From: a virus
Lineage: Duplodnaviria; Heunggongvirae; Uroviricota; Caudoviricetes
Reading direction: 5' to 3' (one strand)
IMG/VR virus record: IMGVR_UViG_2660238548_000015
Length of the DNA stretch: 6,059 nucleotides
Below, one piece after another: positions 1-6,059 of this stretch. Position numbers and translations under genes: made by a program. Under the pieces are notes generated by a model that saw only the letters and a list, made by a program, of their open reading frames with translations, was not told where the DNA came from and made no database searches. How positions within the stretch are numbered: position 1 is the stretch's first letter; each line of letters begins with the position of its first letter.

Positions 1-584
1 TTCTGCAGCTGGTCCGAGGTGCTGTCCGCCGTCTCCCTGACCATCCGGATGTTAAAGGGGCGGGGAGGCAGATTATCCAGAATCACCGACGCCAGAAACT
101 GCGAGGTGGTCTTGCCGTTAATGGTGACATCCTTTTCCGTCACCCATTTACCACCACGCTCAAGCTGAATCAGCAGGCGGACAGACGTCGGGTTACGGTC
201 ACCCTTTGAGGTGGTCTCCACCAGTGACTGCACCCCGAAGGTAACCCGCAGGCGGTCAATGTTCGCGGACGTAATGGTGCGCGTCACCGGCTTTGCCTTC
301 GTCACTTCCACGCCCAGTCCGGTTTCAGCTCCGGAGGACTCAAAGCCTTCCGGTGGTGTCTGCTCCTGCTCCCCGGCACGCCAGACCGCAGTCACACCGT
401 GTATCACGGGATTACCGTCCGTGTCCATCAGCGGGGTTTTGTTCACCAGGATACTCTGCAGCCCCTTCACCGGGCCTTCTATCGGTCCCTCACCAATCGC
501 ATCAATCACACTCATCATCTGCGTGGATTTGAGATTATCCTTCGCCTCTCGAGGCGTGTGCGCCCTGCCGCCACCTTTGCCCAT
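1..584 (-). CDS. J: Host specificity protein J (central tail fibre), N-terminal ~194 codons; 3' end lies beyond the left edge
   Basis: Minus-strand ATG at 584..582 preceded by GAGAGG Shine-Dalgarno (revcomp of 590..595). Hand translation [38 protein letters not shown]...[11 protein letters not shown]...DQLQ is collinear with the lambda gpJ N-terminus ([38 protein letters not shown]...) as recalled. No stop before position 1; not in the ORF track because it is open-ended. Confidence 0.9.
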
Positions 585-717
585 AATGTTCCTCTCAATT
601 GGTATTATTAATCGCAGTGATAGGATATTGCACAGCTATTGCGCGATATCATCAGAACGCTGTTTGTTACCCTGTAACCAGCAAGCTCAGTCTGTTAACG
701 GAATTAATGAGGGTTTT
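585..717. promoter_or_regulatory. Divergent intergenic region between the J start and the sodC start; likely holds the sodC promoter and RBS (GAGGG at 709..713, 4 nt before the ATG)
   Basis: 133-bp non-coding gap between divergent start codons. The RBS is read directly. Weak sigma70-like elements (TTGCAC at 628..633 with a poor -10) and an imperfect dyad GTTAC-CCT-GTAAC at 666..678 were found by eye; no promoter is confidently placed. Confidence 0.3.
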
Positions 718-1245
718 ATGAAATGTAAAATCATTGCTGCCATTGCCATGCTGACAGCAGCATCATGCGGATACGCAGCAGAACAGGAAGTCCCAATGAA
801 CCTTGTCAGTGCTGACGGAAAAGAAGTCAGCATTGGAAAAATAACCATTCAGGAGACCCCCTACGGTCTGCTGTTCACACCAGCCCTTCACTCTCTGTCT
901 GAAGGCATTCATGGTTTTCATGTGCACGAAAAAGGAAATTGCGCCCCGGCACTGAAAGACGGAAAACCGGTCGCAGCATTATCGGCTGGCGGTCACTTTG
1001 ACCCGAAAAACACCGGCAAACATCTTGGCCCCTGGTCTCCGGATGGACACCTGGGCGACCTCCCTGCGCTGTTCGTGACGCATGACGGAAAAGCGAACTA
1101 CCCGGTCCTGGCCCCGAGACTGAACTCATTAAAAGAGATTAAAGGGCGTTCTCTCATGCTTCATGCTGGCGGTGATAACCATCATGACCATCCGGAGCCC
1201 CTGGGCGGTGGTGGTGCGAGAATGGCCTGCGGCATCATTCAATAA
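718..1245 (+). CDS. sodC: Periplasmic copper/zinc superoxide dismutase (SodC family) with N-terminal signal peptide; prophage cargo ('moron') gene
   Basis: ATG at 718 with GAGGG RBS; 175 aa, stop TAA at 1243..1245. Hydrophobic N-terminus [21 protein letters not shown]. Cu,Zn-SOD hallmarks are present: [11 protein letters not shown] (Cu-ligand His, disulfide Cys), GGHFDP, GKHLGP, GHLGDLP (Zn-site His/Asp), LMLHAGGDN (Cu His), [12 protein letters not shown] (Arg and second Cys). Collinear with enterobacterial SodC proteins as recalled. The upstream part of track ORF 211..1245 is antisense to J and is not part of the gene. Confidence 0.92.
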
Positions 1246-1252
1246 TCAGTCA

Positions 1253-1280
1253 GGTAAGGGGCGGGCCCCTTACCTTTATT
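1253..1280 (+). terminator. Rho-independent terminator for sodC
   Basis: Perfect inverted repeat GGTAAGGGG (1253..1261) / CCCCTTACC (1266..1274) with 4-nt loop, followed by TTTATT (1275..1280), 8 nt after the sodC stop. Confidence 0.7.
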
Positions 1281-1393
1281 CCTCAGGACGATAAATCCTT
1301 TCTCCCTGAAAAGAACGGCACATCCTCCCTCTCTGAGTTAATGTTTTTGTCGTGACATAAGAATAATTCCTTACACTCAATCTTCGTAACGCT

Positions 1394-1438
1394 CCCGCAG
1401 TTCCTGTCCGTGAGCACTGCGGGATTTTTTCGCTTTTA
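1394..1438 (+). terminator. Second terminator-like hairpin with a T-tract, possibly a backup terminator insulating the phage genes from sodC read-through
   Basis: Inverted repeat CCCGCAGT (1394..1401) / ACTGCGGG (1416..1423) with a 14-nt loop, then ATTTTTTCGCTTTTA (1424..1438). The loop is long, so stability is uncertain. Its 3' end overlaps the stop codon of the I remnant on the other strand. Confidence 0.4.
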
Positions 1439-1582
1439 TGCCTGCCGCCCGATAACCACCACCTTCCCGTCACCGCCTTCATCACGGGTACTGATGTCCT
1501 GGGAGATTCGCCGTGAGCCAACCAGCATTTCACCGTAAGGCACCGGCATCGGGTTCCCCTGGGCAATCATGTTATCCAGCGG
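1436..1582 (-). pseudogene. I: 3'-terminal remnant of tail assembly protein I gene (last ~45 codons), left by an internal deletion
   Basis: Minus-strand frame reads ...FPLDNMIAQGNPMPVPYGEMLVGSRRISQDISTRDEGGDGKVVVIGRQA*, matching the lambda gpI C-terminus (...SLDNMVAQGNVLPVLYGEMRVGSRVVSQEISTADEGDGGQVVVIGR) as recalled. Stop TAA at 1438..1436. Homology is lost upstream of ~1582, where the H remnant ends in another frame. Confidence 0.75.
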
Positions 1583-1763
1583 AAATCCCGGCTTTTTGTG
1601 CAGCCAGCGCCTGACGACTCAGGTTCTGCTCAACGACACCGACGGTTTTTCTGGCGTCAGTCTCCAGTCCGGAAAAATGACGCCTTACCCGGCTCATCTG
1701 CTCATCGAAACGGACCGCATCCAGACTCAGGTCAATAACAAGATCACCAACCGGCTGGGACAT
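1572..1763 (-). pseudogene. H: 5' remnant of tail tape-measure protein H gene (first ~61 codons, then premature stop)
   Basis: ATG at 1763..1761 with GGGAGGTG Shine-Dalgarno. MSQPVGDLVIDLSLDAVRFDEQMSRVRRHFSGLETDARKTVGVVEQNLSRQALAAQKAGIS matches the lambda gpH N-terminus (MAEPVGDLVVDLSLDAARFDEQMARVRRHFSG...AAQKAGIS) as recalled, then ends AG* at 1574..1572; lambda H is ~850 aa. No continuation of H homology in any frame downstream. Confidence 0.85.
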
Positions 1764-2208
1764 ATCTCACACCTCCCGGAATCCCCGCTGAAGCCATCAT
1801 TAATGCGACATCATCCTCGCTGACATCCGCCACATCCGCAGACGATAAAATCTCACGCCCTCCGTCCCCACCAAACCGTACGCCTCCGGCAAGTCCTGCC
1901 GCTTTCTGCATCAGCATTTTTTCCTCATCCGGCATCTCCGTCTGCGCTTTCTCACGCCGGGGGGCAAGCAGACTGAAATCAGAGGGATGCATATCCGGAT
2001 CGCAAAAAAACAGGCTGAGTACGGCGTACGTCAGCCCGGAAAAATGCATATCCAGTTGGGTATCGTGAAAATAATGCGTACGGTAAAAATGTCGCCAGTC
2101 GGCATATTCGGTGGATGTCATCCCGGCAAGCATGGCGCGCCAGTCAGGCCTCCCCATCTCACGCGCCAGTCTGAGGGCAAAATTCAGCTCGCCGTCGAAG
2201 ACTTTCCC
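1744..2208 (-). CDS. T: Tail assembly chaperone T region, expressed only as a G-T fusion by -1 programmed ribosomal frameshift (no independent start)
   Basis: The -1 frame relative to G is open from the slippery site (2208) to stop TGA at 1746..1744, reading GKVFDGELNLPLRLAREMGRPDWRAMLAGMTSTEYADW... Track ORF 1744..2157 is the part after the first in-frame Met. Coordinates describe the shifted frame, not an independent gene. Confidence 0.8.
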   Translation of the reverse strand, partial: GKVFDGELNFALRLAREMGRPDWRAMLAGMTSTEYADWRHFYRTHYFHDTQLDMHFSGLTYAVLSLFFCDPDMHPSDFSLLAPRREKAQTEMPDEEKMLMQKAAGLAGGVRFGGDGGREILSSADVADVSEDDVALMMASAGIPGGVRYVPAGW

Positions 2209-2615
2209 GCAGAAAAATCATCATCAGTCAGCGCGTTATATTTCGCCACTTCGGTGCTGTCAGTATCCGGACGAACAGCTTCGCTCATCCCGGACAGACG
2301 CAACACCACATCTTCCGCCCGGGCAATGGCATCCGCAGGCCAGGTGGTGAGCACCTCCTGTTCGATCTGCATCACAGCCTCATTCATTGACGGTGATGCC
2401 GTTTTCTGCGGATGGTTATGCCACAGGGACATCGCCACCAGAAACGCGCCGGTTCTGACGAGATCTTCCACGCTTACCTGCAGGTTGCCGCTGGATTCTG
2501 CCTGTTCTGCACGCCGTTTCAGGAGGGCAAGATGCTCAATACGCTGCAGCGCAGACAATTCGGAAAGCGTGACGGACACACCGTTATATTCAAATTGTTC
2601 TGTTTTCAGAAACAT
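2184..2615 (-). CDS. G: Tail assembly chaperone G
   Basis: ATG at 2615..2613 with GGAGGT Shine-Dalgarno (revcomp of 2621..2626). 143 aa, MFLKTEQFEYNGVSVTLSELSALQRIEHLALLKRRAEQAES..., closely matching lambda gpG as recalled; stop TGA at 2186..2184. Confidence 0.93.
   Translation of the reverse strand: MFLKTEQFEYNGVSVTLSELSALQRIEHLALLKRRAEQAESSGNLQVSVEDLVRTGAFLVAMSLWHNHPQKTASPSMNEAVMQIEQEVLTTWPADAIARAEDVVLRLSGMSEAVRPDTDSTEVAKYNALTDDDFSAGKSSTAS
2202..2208 (-). other. Programmed -1 ribosomal frameshift slippery heptamer G GGA AAG for the G to G-T fusion
   Basis: Plus-strand CTTTCCC at 2202..2208 is GGGAAAG on the coding strand, in the zero frame as G-GGA-AAG (Gly-Lys of ...SAGKSSTAS*), 6 codons before the G stop. 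Same heptamer and position as the lambda G/GT site. Confidence 0.8.
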
Positions 2616-2628
2616 GTATTACCTCCGT

Positions 2629-3381
2629 TTACCCTGCAGCGCCCGCTTCAGTAACGGTGACTTCAGCCACTGCGGCGAACTGACCATTTCCGCTCACCAC
2701 AGGGATCTGCACCTTACCTGTCGCCACGCCGTTTACCGTAATTGTCATATCTTTCACACTAATGGTGGCTTTCGACGGATCGGCGGAAACCACTCTGAAC
2801 GTCTTGTCGGTTGCACTTTCCGGCTCAAAAGAAACCGTCAGGGTGGTTGTTTTCCCTTTTGCCACCGTACCGGATGTCGGCGTCACCTTAATCGCAGTGA
2901 CCGGCGTAATTTTGCTGCGTTCTTCCGCTACAGAAGGTTTGCCCACGTTGGTCACTTTCACCGTGCGGGTGATCACTTCTTTCGCCGTCACGGCCTTACC
3001 GATACTGCTGACCCAGCCACGAAACACATCCACCGTGCCGTTCGGAAAACGGATTTTATAGGCCCGCACATCCCCGCTTTCAAACCAGCCTATAAGCCCT
3101 TTCTGACCTTCTTCTCCCGGTTTCCAGGCCAGCGTAAAACTGGTATCTCCTGCAGACTTCTGCCCCTGCCCGGTCGCGGTCCAGTCCGCGTCTTCATCAT
3201 CCAGGTAGTTATCATCGTAGGGTTCTGCCGTCATCTCGCCCGGCGTCAGATCCTTCACCTTAGCCAGTCGCAGCCAGTCATCGTCTGACAACGGGTTTGC
3301 ATAGGCGTCACCCTGACCGTTATAAACCCACAGGGTGGTACCGGCACCTTTTACCGGCTCAAGGGGATTTGGTGTTGCCAT
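2629..3381 (-). CDS. V: Major tail tube protein V, with C-terminal Ig-like (Big_2-type) domain
   Basis: ATG at 3381..3379 with GAGGA Shine-Dalgarno. 250 aa, [36 protein letters not shown]...[42 protein letters not shown]..., near-collinear with lambda gpV as recalled. The C-terminal ~90 aa ([23 protein letters not shown]...[37 protein letters not shown]) has the Ig-like pattern known for gpV. Confidence 0.95.
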
Positions 3382-3388
3382 ATCGTCC

Positions 3389-3784
3389 TCACATCTCGTA
3401 TGTAATGGAATAAGTCAGATCCGCAGAACTCCATAACGCCATATCGTCATCACGACGATACTCATAGCCCTGCGTAACCATCGTCGTAATCAGGTCTGCC
3501 AGTGCCGGGATCGCAGTCATCGCCGGATAAATCCGGCTTTCCATCCACGAATCCAGCTCCGAATCCGGTACCTGTGCTGGTAAAAACACCTCAATATGCA
3601 GTGTGGCCCGCCAGGTATCTGCATCCAGCTCTTCACCGGTATACTCTGCATCCGTCAGATAAACCGCGACGGCCGGAAAATCCTCTTCGTCAAAAACAAC
3701 GGGGCGACCATCAAACAGCGTCGCCCCGTGTTCATGCAGCTCCAGTGCATCCAGCACTGCCGCACGGATATCAGTATGTTTCAT
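3389..3784 (-). CDS. U: Tail terminator protein U
   Basis: 131 aa, [87 protein letters not shown]..., closely matching lambda gpU as recalled. Start ATG overlaps the Z stop as ATGA. Confidence 0.95.
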
Positions 3785-4314
3785 CGTTTTATCGCAATCC
3801 TCAGTTGTTGTTTCAGCGCGTATGCCAGTTCTCCGGGCAGACGTTCACGCCGGATACGGTCAACATTCTCATCAAACGCCTGTTTCAGTGGGGCCGCCAT
3901 CGGGATTTTCACCACATCAATGGGGTAACGGTTTTTCCCGGCCACACGCTGCATGACATGCCAGCGACCATTTTTTAATCGCTGAATAAATGCCCGCTGA
4001 TAACGATGCTGACCGGCTTTGAGTATGCTGTCCGGACGACGCCCCGGCATCCTGATCCCCAGCTTAATCACCGGGAGATCACCGCGGTTAACGATAATTC
4101 TGGCATTCGGATTTCTGACCGTGGCCCGTTTCAGTCTGGACCGTTCCTTTACCAGTTTCCGGCGAACCTTTGTCTCCCGGGCAACCTGTGATGAAGACTG
4201 ATTAATCGCCGTTGTGGCCACGCGGTTAATGGCCATTGCTGAAGCCGCCGGAATGGCGTTTTTACGAACCCGGCTCAGATTTTCAATCGTCTGATCAAGC
4301 CCTTTTATCGCCAT
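3781..4314 (-). CDS. Z: Tail completion protein Z
   Basis: ATG at 4314..4312 with AGGGTGA Shine-Dalgarno-like sequence. 177 aa, MAIKGLDQTIENLSRVRKNAIPAASAMAINRVATTAINQSSSQVARETKVRRKLVKERSRLKRATV...AFIQRLKNGRWHVMQRVAGKNRYPIDVVKIPMA...RERLP, matching lambda gpZ as recalled. Confidence 0.93.
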   Translation of the reverse strand: MAIKGLDQTIENLSRVRKNAIPAASAMAINRVATTAINQSSSQVARETKVRRKLVKERSRLKRATVRNPNARIIVNRGDLPVIKLGIRMPGRRPDSILKAGQHRYQRAFIQRLKNGRWHVMQRVAGKNRYPIDVVKIPMAAPLKQAFDENVDRIRRERLPGELAYALKQQLRIAIKR

Positions 4315-4328
4315 AATTCACCCTGCGT

Positions 4329-4682
4329 TTATCGTCGCCGGTTAACGGCGGGTGGTTGACCACGGTTGAGCCAGAGATAACAGCTGCCCCCGTCATCCGG
4401 AGAAACACGATCCACCCAGAATATCTCACCATTAATGGTCAGCGTGTCACCACGCCGCACGGCACGAACCGTATCCGTCCGCACAAATAATGACGGGCTG
4501 CTTCCTTCAATACGGACCCCGCCACCGGCAAACCCCAGCGACTCCGGATCGTCAAAAACCCCCTGAACTTCGCTGCCACACTGTGCCCCCGAGGTGAACT
4601 GCGCACAGAGCCCCATCACTTCAACAATCGTGCTGTCCACCCCGGCAAGGGCAGCATCAAAGGCATTCTGAAAATCACGCAT
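4329..4682 (-). CDS. FII: Head-tail joining protein FII (head completion)
   Basis: Homology to lambda gpFII (MADFDNLFDAAIA...GVFDDPE...GVRVEGSSPSLFVRTDEVRQLRRGDTLTI...FWVDRVSPDDGGSCHLWLGRG.PPAVNRRR) begins at MRDFQNAFDAALAG. Start chosen at ATG 4682..4680, giving 117 aa, the lambda length as I recall it. In-frame ATGs at 4700 and 4718 are alternative starts. Stop TAA at 4331..4329. Confidence 0.85.
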   Translation of the reverse strand: MRDFQNAFDAALAGVDSTIVEVMGLCAQFTSGAQCGSEVQGVFDDPESLGFAGGGVRIEGSSPSLFVRTDTVRAVRRGDTLTINGEIFWVDRVSPDDGGSCYLWLNRGQPPAVNRRR

Positions 4683-5049
4683 AAACAGCCATTCCGCCAT
4701 CAACGTGTGTTTTTGCATCTGAGGACATAATCAGAATCACCCGACCAACATCCGCAATCTCAACGGATTCCCCTGTTTCACCATCAATGCCACAGAGATG
4801 GAGGCAGGTCAGAACTCTGATGCGCGTTAACGCACCGGATGTATCCTCACGAACATCATGAGCCGCGGTTTCCCGCTCCCGGATCACCGTATCCCCAACC
4901 TGAACATCCTCGCCGGATGACTGTATTTCCTCTTCCCATTCCGCCACCCGCTGCGCTATCTCTGCGGCACTCCCGGATATATCCGGCTCACGCCCCAGAA
5001 TCAGGGCCAGTTCATCAAGCCGTTTCAGATTTTGCTCTTTCGTTGCCAT
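4675..5049 (-). CDS. FI: DNA-packaging / head assembly protein FI
   Basis: ATG at 5049..5047 preceded by AGGGGG Shine-Dalgarno (revcomp of 5055..5060). MATKEQNLKRLDELALILGREPDISGSAAEIAQRVAEWEEE... resembles lambda gpFI in its N-terminal region and acidic middle. The track's longer ORF to 5097 begins at a GTG with no RBS and is not preferred. Stop TGA at 4677..4675. Confidence 0.8.
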   Translation of the reverse strand: MATKEQNLKRLDELALILGREPDISGSAAEIAQRVAEWEEEIQSSGEDVQVGDTVIRERETAAHDVREDTSGALTRIRVLTCLHLCGIDGETGESVEIADVGRVILIMSSDAKTHVDGGMAVYA

Positions 5050-5100
5050 ATCAGCCCCCTGTGAAAAAAGACACGGGGGCATTTCGCCCCCGCTCACGGA
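5050..5100 (-). promoter_or_regulatory. E-FI intergenic GC-rich hairpin with U-tract (terminator/attenuator-like), with an alternative pairing that sequesters the FI Shine-Dalgarno
   Basis: On the minus-strand mRNA: CGGGGGC-GAAAU-GCCCCCG (plus 5092..5074, 7-bp GC stem) followed by UGUCUUUUUUC, just after the E stop. The same GCCCCC segment (plus 5075..5080) can instead pair with GGGGGC in the FI Shine-Dalgarno (plus 5054..5059). Seen directly in the sequence; function is inferred. Confidence 0.5.
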
Positions 5101-6059
5101 TTATTTCACCTGTACCACCACAAACTCATCCGGGTCCGGCAACACCATCAGCGGCGCGGACTGCGTCATGGTAAATTCACGGGCGGGATCCCCCACCGTC
5201 AGCCAGTGTTTCGGATAACGGGAAGAGGCCACCACACCTTCGGACAACGCCTGCGCATCCTGAATGGCACCGTAACAACGGATCCCATCTGCAGCAGTAT
5301 TCCCCAGAACCAGCATGCCCTCCGGCAGATAACGTTTTTCGATACCGTCTTCTGCTATATAAGACGTTTTCGCCACCACAATGGCCAGATCGCCGTAATA
5401 CCCCTTGAAGGACACCACTGCGCCCAGATCTTTCACTGCCGTTTCGAGTTGAGAATTTGAACCGCGACGGGTATCCAGTTTTTCGCGGAACAGCTTAAAA
5501 CCATTCAGAAGACGCCAGACGGTACCGTCCATAATGGCAATATTCACAAGACCGCTGGCCTGGTCGCAGTAGAGGTCAAGATCATGTGTAGGATCGAACG
5601 TGTCACGATCCTGTTTTGACCACTCCTTACCACTACCCTGAGTGATGTTATTCTTCGTCGACCTGCCAAAATCGACCTCAATTTTCTCGAACTGGTCTCC
5701 TTCCATCGTATATTTGCCATACAACACAGCATTTACCGCCTGTATTTCTTCCACCTGGACAATCGCGTGCTCTTCCTGTTTGAGGTTATCGGTAATGATA
5801 CGCAGACGGCGGTAAGCCGGATCGTTCAGTTGAGCCGGATCTTCACCAGGAAGGCGCTCAACCGCCTGCTGGTAATTAAATTCGTGTTTCGGCTTGACGT
5901 AGCCCGGACGTAACACGCGGGTTTCACCACCACGATGACGCAGCACTTTTCCTTCAACAACCGGGGAGACATAGGCCGCCACCGGCGTTTTTCCGGTAAT
6001 TTTGTCCAGCATCACCTCTTCGGTATGGAAATTCACCGTACGGCGGAAAAACAGCTCCA
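5101..6059 (-). CDS. E: Major capsid protein E; 5' end (~20-40 codons) lies beyond the right edge
   Basis: Stop TAA at 5103..5101. The frame is open to the window edge and reads ...ELFFRRTVNFHTEEVMLDKITGKTPVAAYVSPVVEGKVLRHRGGETRVLRPGYVKPKHE...KLDTRRGSNSQLETAVKDLG...GDPAREFTMTQSAPLMVLPDPDEFVVVQVK, collinear with lambda gpE from about residue 25 as recalled. The track's 'M' at 6036 is an internal GTG (Val), not the true start. Confidence 0.95.
   Translation of the reverse strand, partial: ELFFRRTVNFHTEEVMLDKITGKTPVAAYVSPVVEGKVLRHRGGETRVLRPGYVKPKHEFNYQQAVERLPGEDPAQLNDPAYRRLRIITDNLKQEEHAIVQVEEIQAVNAVLYGKYTMEGDQFEKIEVDFGRSTKNNITQGSGKEWSKQDRDTFDPTHDLDLYCDQASGLVNIAIMDGTVWRLLNGFKLFREKLDTRRGSNSQLETAVKDLGAVVSFKGYYGDLAIVVAKTSYIAEDGIEKRYLPEGMLVLGNTAADGIRCYGAIQDAQALSEGVVASSRYPKHWLTVGDPAREFTMTQSAPLMVLPDPDEFVVVQVK

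Follow-up and report, generated by a model that had tools for sequence, protein, structure and literature searches.

Gene organization of the contig

The window, by which we mean the whole stretch of 6,059 nt analyzed here, is the entire contig JZDV01000026.1 of the STEC strain St. Olav40 (phylogroup B1, O-untypable), which came from a patient in Trondheim. Its minus strand carries a lambda-type late gene block, and sodC lies on the opposite strand between the tail genes I and J; the coordinates of the features are collected in Table 1. The gap between I and J is 851 bp long, with the I stop codon at 1438-1436 and the J start at 584 on the minus strand, and the segment 585-1438, on which the original prediction had focused, corresponds to this intergenic region plus the I stop codon. 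When a wider segment (1-2300 of the window) was matched to annotated genomes, the features lying beneath the match were gpJ, sodC and a tail assembly protein.

Table 1. Features assigned in the window, in order of position, with the residues predicted to be functional in SodC given last
Feature	Position	Strand	Remarks
J, 5' end	3-584	-	194 codons, cut by contig end; PF24801 FNIII-A_GpJ, E=2.1e-34; gpJ annotation
sodC 5' region	585-717	+	Likely promoter-bearing; 39.8% GC; RBS GAGGG at 709-713, 4 nt ahead of ATG
sodC coding sequence	718-1245	+	175 aa + stop; ATG 718-720, TAA 1243-1245
Hairpin 1	1252-1275	+	Perfect palindrome, 10-bp stem, 4-nt loop; 7 nt past sodC stop, followed by TTATTCCT
Backbone segment	1330-1438	+	109 bp, adjoins I stop codon; holds hairpin 2; common to sodC-less lambdoid phages
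Hairpin 2	1393-1424	+	9-bp stem, followed by ATTTTTTCGCTTTT, a long T-tract; terminator-like; ahead of I stop
I remnant	1436-1579	-	Last 47 codons + stop; annotated "tail assembly protein" in matching genomes
H, truncated (tape measure)	1572-1763	-	61 H codons, 2 out-of-frame codons, stop
T	2157-1744	-	Intact tail chaperone; Pfam
G	2615-2184	-	Intact tail chaperone; Pfam
V	3381-2629	-	Pfam
U	3784-3389	-	Pfam
Z	4314-3781	-	Pfam
FII	4682-4329	-	Pfam
FI	5049-4675	-	Pfam
E, major capsid gene		-	Cut by window end; Pfam
SodC, predicted Cu/Zn ligands	His66, His68, His93, His102, His111, Asp114, His150		From motif positions
SodC, other residues	Cys75 + Cys171; Arg168; Cys17		Predicted disulphide pair; active-site Arg; Cys in lipobox-like AASC; from motif positions

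In the region of G and T, the lambda G/GT -1 frameshift heptamer GGGAAAG was found at 2208-2202 (minus strand) in the frame G GGA AAG, and a simulated slip at this heptamer gave a continuous G-T fusion protein. An ORF of 433 codons on the plus strand (1987-3288) lies opposite the coding sequences of T, G and V and is most likely spurious.

The sodC gene and its product

The ORF of 175 codons on the plus strand encodes a full-length Cu,Zn superoxide dismutase of the bacterial SodC type. The original prediction had proposed this identity and a comparison of the product with PF00080 as its check, and the product did match this family: the match to the Pfam Sod_Cu profile scored 111.9 bits (E=3.9e-32; cut-off 28.9) over profile positions 3-133 of 133, and the SodC equivalog model NF007628 of NCBIfam gave 218.4 bits against a cut-off of 165. 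SodC proteins of solved structure matched at E-values from about 1e-62 to 1e-56, with PDB 1z9n at E=8.8e-63, and because these structure-level matches were so strong (E of about 1e-62) a structure prediction was unnecessary. The characteristic motifs are present, namely HGFHVH (65-70), GNC (73-75), GGH (91-93), GKH (100-102), DGH (109-111), GD (113-114), LHAGGDN (148-154) and ARMAC (167-171), and the ligand motifs align with those of 1z9n and of the Gifsy-2 SodCI. The assignment of single residues to Cu or to Zn follows what is established for this family. The hydrophobic N-terminus resembles an export signal, and the motifs AASC and AYAA-E can be read in it.

Boundaries of the cassette in the I-J slot

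The lambda genes I (14773-15444) and J (15505-18903) have 60 bp between them, and the overlap of I stop and J start that had been supposed for lambda is therefore incorrect; the corresponding gap is 71 bp in Gifsy-2. In the Stx2c phage PV98-693, which has no sodC, the gap is about 240 bp and geneless, and comparison with this phage gave precise boundaries for the cassette. The homology of PV98-693 to the window breaks off precisely where the J start codon lies (584/585) and restarts at 1330, and an unrelated filler of 131 bp takes the place of window positions 585-1329. From these breakpoints, the sodC-specific segment is 585-1329 (745 bp), and the minus strand of its 585-717 part also provides J with its ribosome-binding site (GAGAGGAA, shortly before the ATG at 584).

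The remaining segment, 1330-1438, is about 98% identical in Stx1a and Stx2c phages that lack sodC. It was found in 629 complete E. coli genomes, some having sodC and others lacking it, the whole cassette being present in 547, and the alternative I-J filler was found in 612 genomes. On the basis of these distributions, we regard the I-J gap as a mosaic slot.

Two small ORFs near this boundary were considered and rejected. One is a minus-strand ORF of 68 aa (1276-1482) contained in a public gene set; it has no family match, and its frame, which differs from that of the overlapping I, is shifted in the sodC-less phage by a difference of 1 nt in a T-run. The other is a short minus-strand mini-ORF after I (MSRQK...), which is not conserved between the window and PV98-693.

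We observed separately that the late-operon strand of lambda, of Gifsy-2 and of the sodC-less Stx2c phage has a GC-rich hairpin followed by a T-run shortly before the ribosome-binding site of J (positions 1446-1505 of our lambda locus L005, 2695-2765 of the Gifsy-2 locus L004 and 2370-2500 of the PV98-693 locus L002); the lambda element is AAACCGCCTGCGGGCGGTTTTGTCATTT. The sodC-bearing version, i.e. the minus strand of window positions 585-724, does not have this element.

Predicted terminators and promoter candidates

A terminator scan of 400-1800 called six sites against 1.2 expected, and both hairpins of Table 1 were called on the plus strand only, in accordance with the original prediction that they face the direction of sodC transcription. 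Neither hairpin has a T-tract on the minus strand, the minus-strand tail of hairpin 1 being GACTGATT, which is not T-rich. The 48-nt stretch 1243-1290, which contains hairpin 1, folds at -17.9 kcal/mol (z=-2.5), and hairpin 1 is predicted from its sequence to be the intrinsic terminator of sodC; its termination efficiency is uncertain because the T-tract that follows it is poor. The original prediction had treated both hairpins as parts of one sodC unit. This holds for hairpin 1, which directly follows sodC, but not for hairpin 2, which lies in the backbone shared with sodC-less phages. A search of Rfam over 400-1900 (E<=1) gave sub-threshold chance matches only; the best, to STnc400, reached 23 bits against a gathering score of 80 and lay over a terminator hairpin, and an annotated small RNA was accordingly rejected.

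A strict scan of 400-1800 for the sigma-70 consensus returned no promoters. In a relaxed scan, two candidate promoters appeared in the sodC 5' region: an extended -10 element TGgTATTAT at 600-608, and the pair TTGGTA (599-604) and TAGGAT (621-626) with a 16-nt spacer and an upstream TG. The sodC promoter likely lies within the AT-rich 133 bp upstream of the gene, where these candidate sites may mark its position. The base composition differs modestly along the window, GC content being 39.8% in 585-717, 50.5% in 585-1329, 59.1% in the part of J and 54.3% in the rest of the window.

When intact relatives grow lytically, transcription of the late operon has to traverse the cassette in antisense before it reaches J; as is well established, this transcription is Q-antiterminated in lambdoid phages.

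Identity with SodC-F and distribution in E. coli

The sodC of the window is an already known and characterized gene. Copies of the 854-bp stretch 585-1438 that are 100% identical were found in hundreds of E. coli genomes, and at least 80% of the stretch was present in 547 of 5,426 complete E. coli genomes, invariably in the order J, sodC, tail assembly protein, the carriers including O157:H7, O103:H2, O111:H8 and O145. It also occurs in two Stx2a-converting phage records, so that the recurrence of the I-sodC-J arrangement, for which a search had been proposed at the outset, is evident. The SodC protein is the same, residue for residue, as that of the O103:H2 12009 prophage and that of the Stx2a phage Stx2_EH2201, both of which keep the intact order H-M-L-K-I-sodC-J, and it agrees with one copy of O157:H7 EDL933 at 174 of 175 residues, the sole difference being L112P. 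Six apparent mismatches in one further locus (L088) proved to be N characters, and divergence of that copy was ruled out.

D'Orazio et al. (2008; PMC2569942) described SodC-F1 and SodC-F2 as two EDL933 prophage proteins that are one amino acid apart and called the two prophages CP-933R and CP-933V, and the one-residue difference that we found fits this description. The cassette is 99.9-100% identical to that of O157:H7 genomes, and the I-J position, the antisense orientation and the AASC lipobox are all the same, so that the gene is the same gene; the window differs from the EDL933 loci in that its host is a non-O157, O-untypable STEC of phylogroup B1 and that its tail module has a 4.6-kb deletion from H to I.

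The published work on SodC-F concerns the EDL933 copies, and hence a strain different from St. Olav40. In that work, 299 bp upstream of the ATG served as the promoter region in a lacZ fusion, the expression of which was rpoS-independent (stated as "data not shown"), and tagged SodC-F proteins accumulated in uninduced cultures; the proteins were made in log phase, in stationary phase and under anaerobic conditions, and relatively more of them inside Caco-2 cells (PMC2569942). An own promoter for sodC had been expected in the original prediction, and this reported rpoS-independent upstream region, together with the expression in uninduced cultures, agrees with the expectation. The AASC lipobox was found to cause partial membrane anchoring, with dual SpI/SpII processing and the protein occurring in soluble and membrane fractions (PMC2569942). 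SodC-F1 was a stable dimer, and its specific activity of 19,380 U/mg was about threefold that of the chromosomal SodC; the resistance to H2O2 was reduced in sodC mutants (PMC2569942). The chromosomal SodC of E. coli differs from the dimeric, rpoS-independent SodC-F in being a monomer and in depending on rpoS (PMC2569942).

Relatives of the cassette outside E. coli prophages

The chromosomal SodC proteins of Enterobacterales, such as those of E. coli (PDB 1eso) and Serratia, belong to the same family and have the same fold and ligands. In a protein scan of species-representative genomes, the closest SodC among the best 80 loci were chromosomal ones of Serratia and other Yersiniaceae, with about 63% identity for Serratia, and a few of Pseudomonas (range 62-68%; Serratia and Pseudomonas are our loci L006-L018). 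Chromosomal SodC of E. coli or Salmonella was absent among these best 80 loci, all of which had a chromosomal SodC from another genus with an identity of at most 68%, and the scan yielded no further I-sodC-J loci. The comparison hints that the phage sodC may have been captured from a genus other than that of the present host.

The Gifsy-2 sodCI of Salmonella, with which the original prediction had drawn a parallel, is no more than an analogue, being likewise a prophage-borne gene for an exported, dimer-type Cu,Zn SOD placed in antisense within the tail gene block, and it is a known virulence or accessory gene that is highly expressed in lysogens. It occupies, however, a different slot, between M/lom and L, as opposed to I and J in the window, and the identity is only 59% for the protein and 65% over 424 nt for the DNA. 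With another insertion site and such low identity, it was rejected as an orthologue carrying the same cassette and must have been acquired or placed independently.

Deletion in the tail genes and the survival of sodC

Relative to the O103:H2 12009 prophage, the window is 99.3% identical over 1-1579 and 99.6% over 1580-5976, and these two parts align to positions that are 4,603 bp apart. The large tail-module deletion noticed in the original reading is thus confirmed and sized: the lost 4,603 bp take in M, L and K entirely, the greater part of H and the 5' portion of I. Codon 61 of H is thereby fused, out of frame, to the 47 codons that remain of I, and the junction lies between 1579 and 1580 with essentially no microhomology. 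With H, M, L, K and I lost or damaged, the St. Olav40 prophage cannot build tails. The deletion spared sodC and its flanks, and it looks recent, because both flanks are more than 99% identical to the intact prophage and the other genes of the window are of full length.

The arrangement had originally been read as cargo that is kept while the phage decays. This is plausible, and a decayed prophage of EDL933 fits it: in its sodC locus (L090, 12208-16640 of NZ_CP124741.1) the tape-measure gene is frameshifted, and the capsid gene is truncated and directly adjoins the tail tube gene, FI to U being missing, yet sodC is intact. One locus, on the other hand, cannot show selection. It should be mentioned that NZ_CP124741.1 is recorded as a 287-kb "plasmid" and has chromosomal genes such as hyaA, so that the assembly or its label is doubtful. 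The independent damage to the EDL933 prophage beside an intact sodC fits a general pattern of cargo outliving phage functions.

The strongest competing explanation, to which we give even chances, is that sodC sits beside the deletion by chance, without selection, a recent deletion having happened to end 141 bp short of the I stop codon. The high identity of the flanks and the full length of the other genes, which suggest one recent event, favor this explanation, and since the sodC copies are 100% identical no measure of selection can be computed; the presence of the deleted allele in at least three independent samples and the independent damage in EDL933, where sodC was again spared, speak against it. 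Two more far-reaching readings appear improbable at present. According to the first, the prophage of St. Olav39 and St. Olav40 deleted from H to I would be a remnant that has become domesticated, selection keeping sodC, and probably cargo downstream of J, while tail genes are lost; according to the second, the segment 1330-1438 would be functional in itself, either by giving a small antisense RNA its 3' end or as a recombination joint for the exchange of I-J cargo.

We also considered whether the H-I junction (1579/1580) is a chimera, produced in short-read assembly from two similar lambdoid prophages. The window is a 6-kb contig of a fragmented draft assembly, and the junction was found in none of the 5,426 complete E. 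coli genomes and gave no match in an exact-pattern scan of species-representative genomes. The identical junction, encoding the same 63-aa truncated H product, was found in four assemblies, namely St. Olav40, St. Olav39, an unrelated assembly of 2024 (GCA_045756045.1) and a metagenome scaffold, all of them giving short contigs (1.3-6 kb). Such a recurrence, the colinearity of both flanks with one and the same prophage, and the lack of any repeat or microhomology that could mislead an assembler make a chimera very unlikely, and we take the junction as a real and rare allele, known from short contigs only.

Least credible of all is the view that sodC is silent or decaying passenger DNA yielding at most antisense noise: no consensus promoter was detected, the prophage is defective and the GC content of sodC is only modestly distinct, but the ORF is intact with all catalytic motifs, its DNA is 100% identical in hundreds of genomes, including those of O157:H7 whose genes were expressed experimentally, and its upstream region has been used as a lacZ promoter, with tagged proteins accumulating in uninduced cells (PMC2569942).

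The cassette as a moron and its proposed mode of action

We conclude that the region is almost certainly the sodC-F moron gene of EHEC/STEC lambdoid prophages, located at its standard place between I and J and opposite to the late operon. An antisense sodC moron in the I-J gap of a lambdoid prophage, belonging to a known class, was the central claim of the original prediction, and annotation, protein families and hairpins support it. The gene sits between genes that are adjacent in relatives (separated by 60 bp in lambda and 71 bp in Gifsy-2), it has a predicted factor-independent terminator of its own (the hairpin at 1252-1275), with a second predicted one at 1393-1424, and its base composition differs, modestly, from that of the neighboring phage genes. 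Morons of lambdoid phages, for example bor and lom of lambda, are reportedly described in work of Juhala et al. from 2000 and of Cumby et al. from 2012. The sodC cassette resembles such morons in being an extra gene between genes adjacent in relatives and in its distinct composition, and probably also in having own expression signals, prophage expression and a benefit to the host; nothing essential is unlike, except that the sodC promoter would be a poor match to the sigma-70 consensus.

As a moron of this kind, sodC would most likely have its promoter in the AT-rich 133 bp ahead of it; this promoter would work while the prophage is repressed and would not require RpoS, and the mRNA would end at the palindromic hairpin 7 nt past the stop codon, with the backbone hairpin and its T-tract beside the I stop codon serving as a possible second barrier. 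The product would be exported by means of its N-terminal signal and act in the periplasm as a dimeric Cu,Zn superoxide dismutase, a fraction of which would probably be lipid-anchored via Cys17 of the AASC lipobox. It would then remove exogenous superoxide and contribute in this way to resistance against oxidative stress. In this scheme, we infer where exactly the promoter lies, that transcription stops at the hairpins, and whatever selection may keep sodC in place, and we rely on the literature for the activity of the promoter, the pattern of expression, the dimeric state, the partial lipidation and the H2O2 phenotype.

Prophage-borne SodC is an established oxidative-stress factor associated with virulence in EHEC and Salmonella, and to this knowledge the copy in the window adds little. 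What is new is local: a rare allele with a 4.6-kb tail-gene deletion in one STEC lineage, and precise boundaries of the cassette, with 585-1329 specific to sodC and 1330-1438 belonging to the common backbone. The deletion allele and these boundaries are useful for prophage typing, and they add one more case of cargo outliving phage functions.
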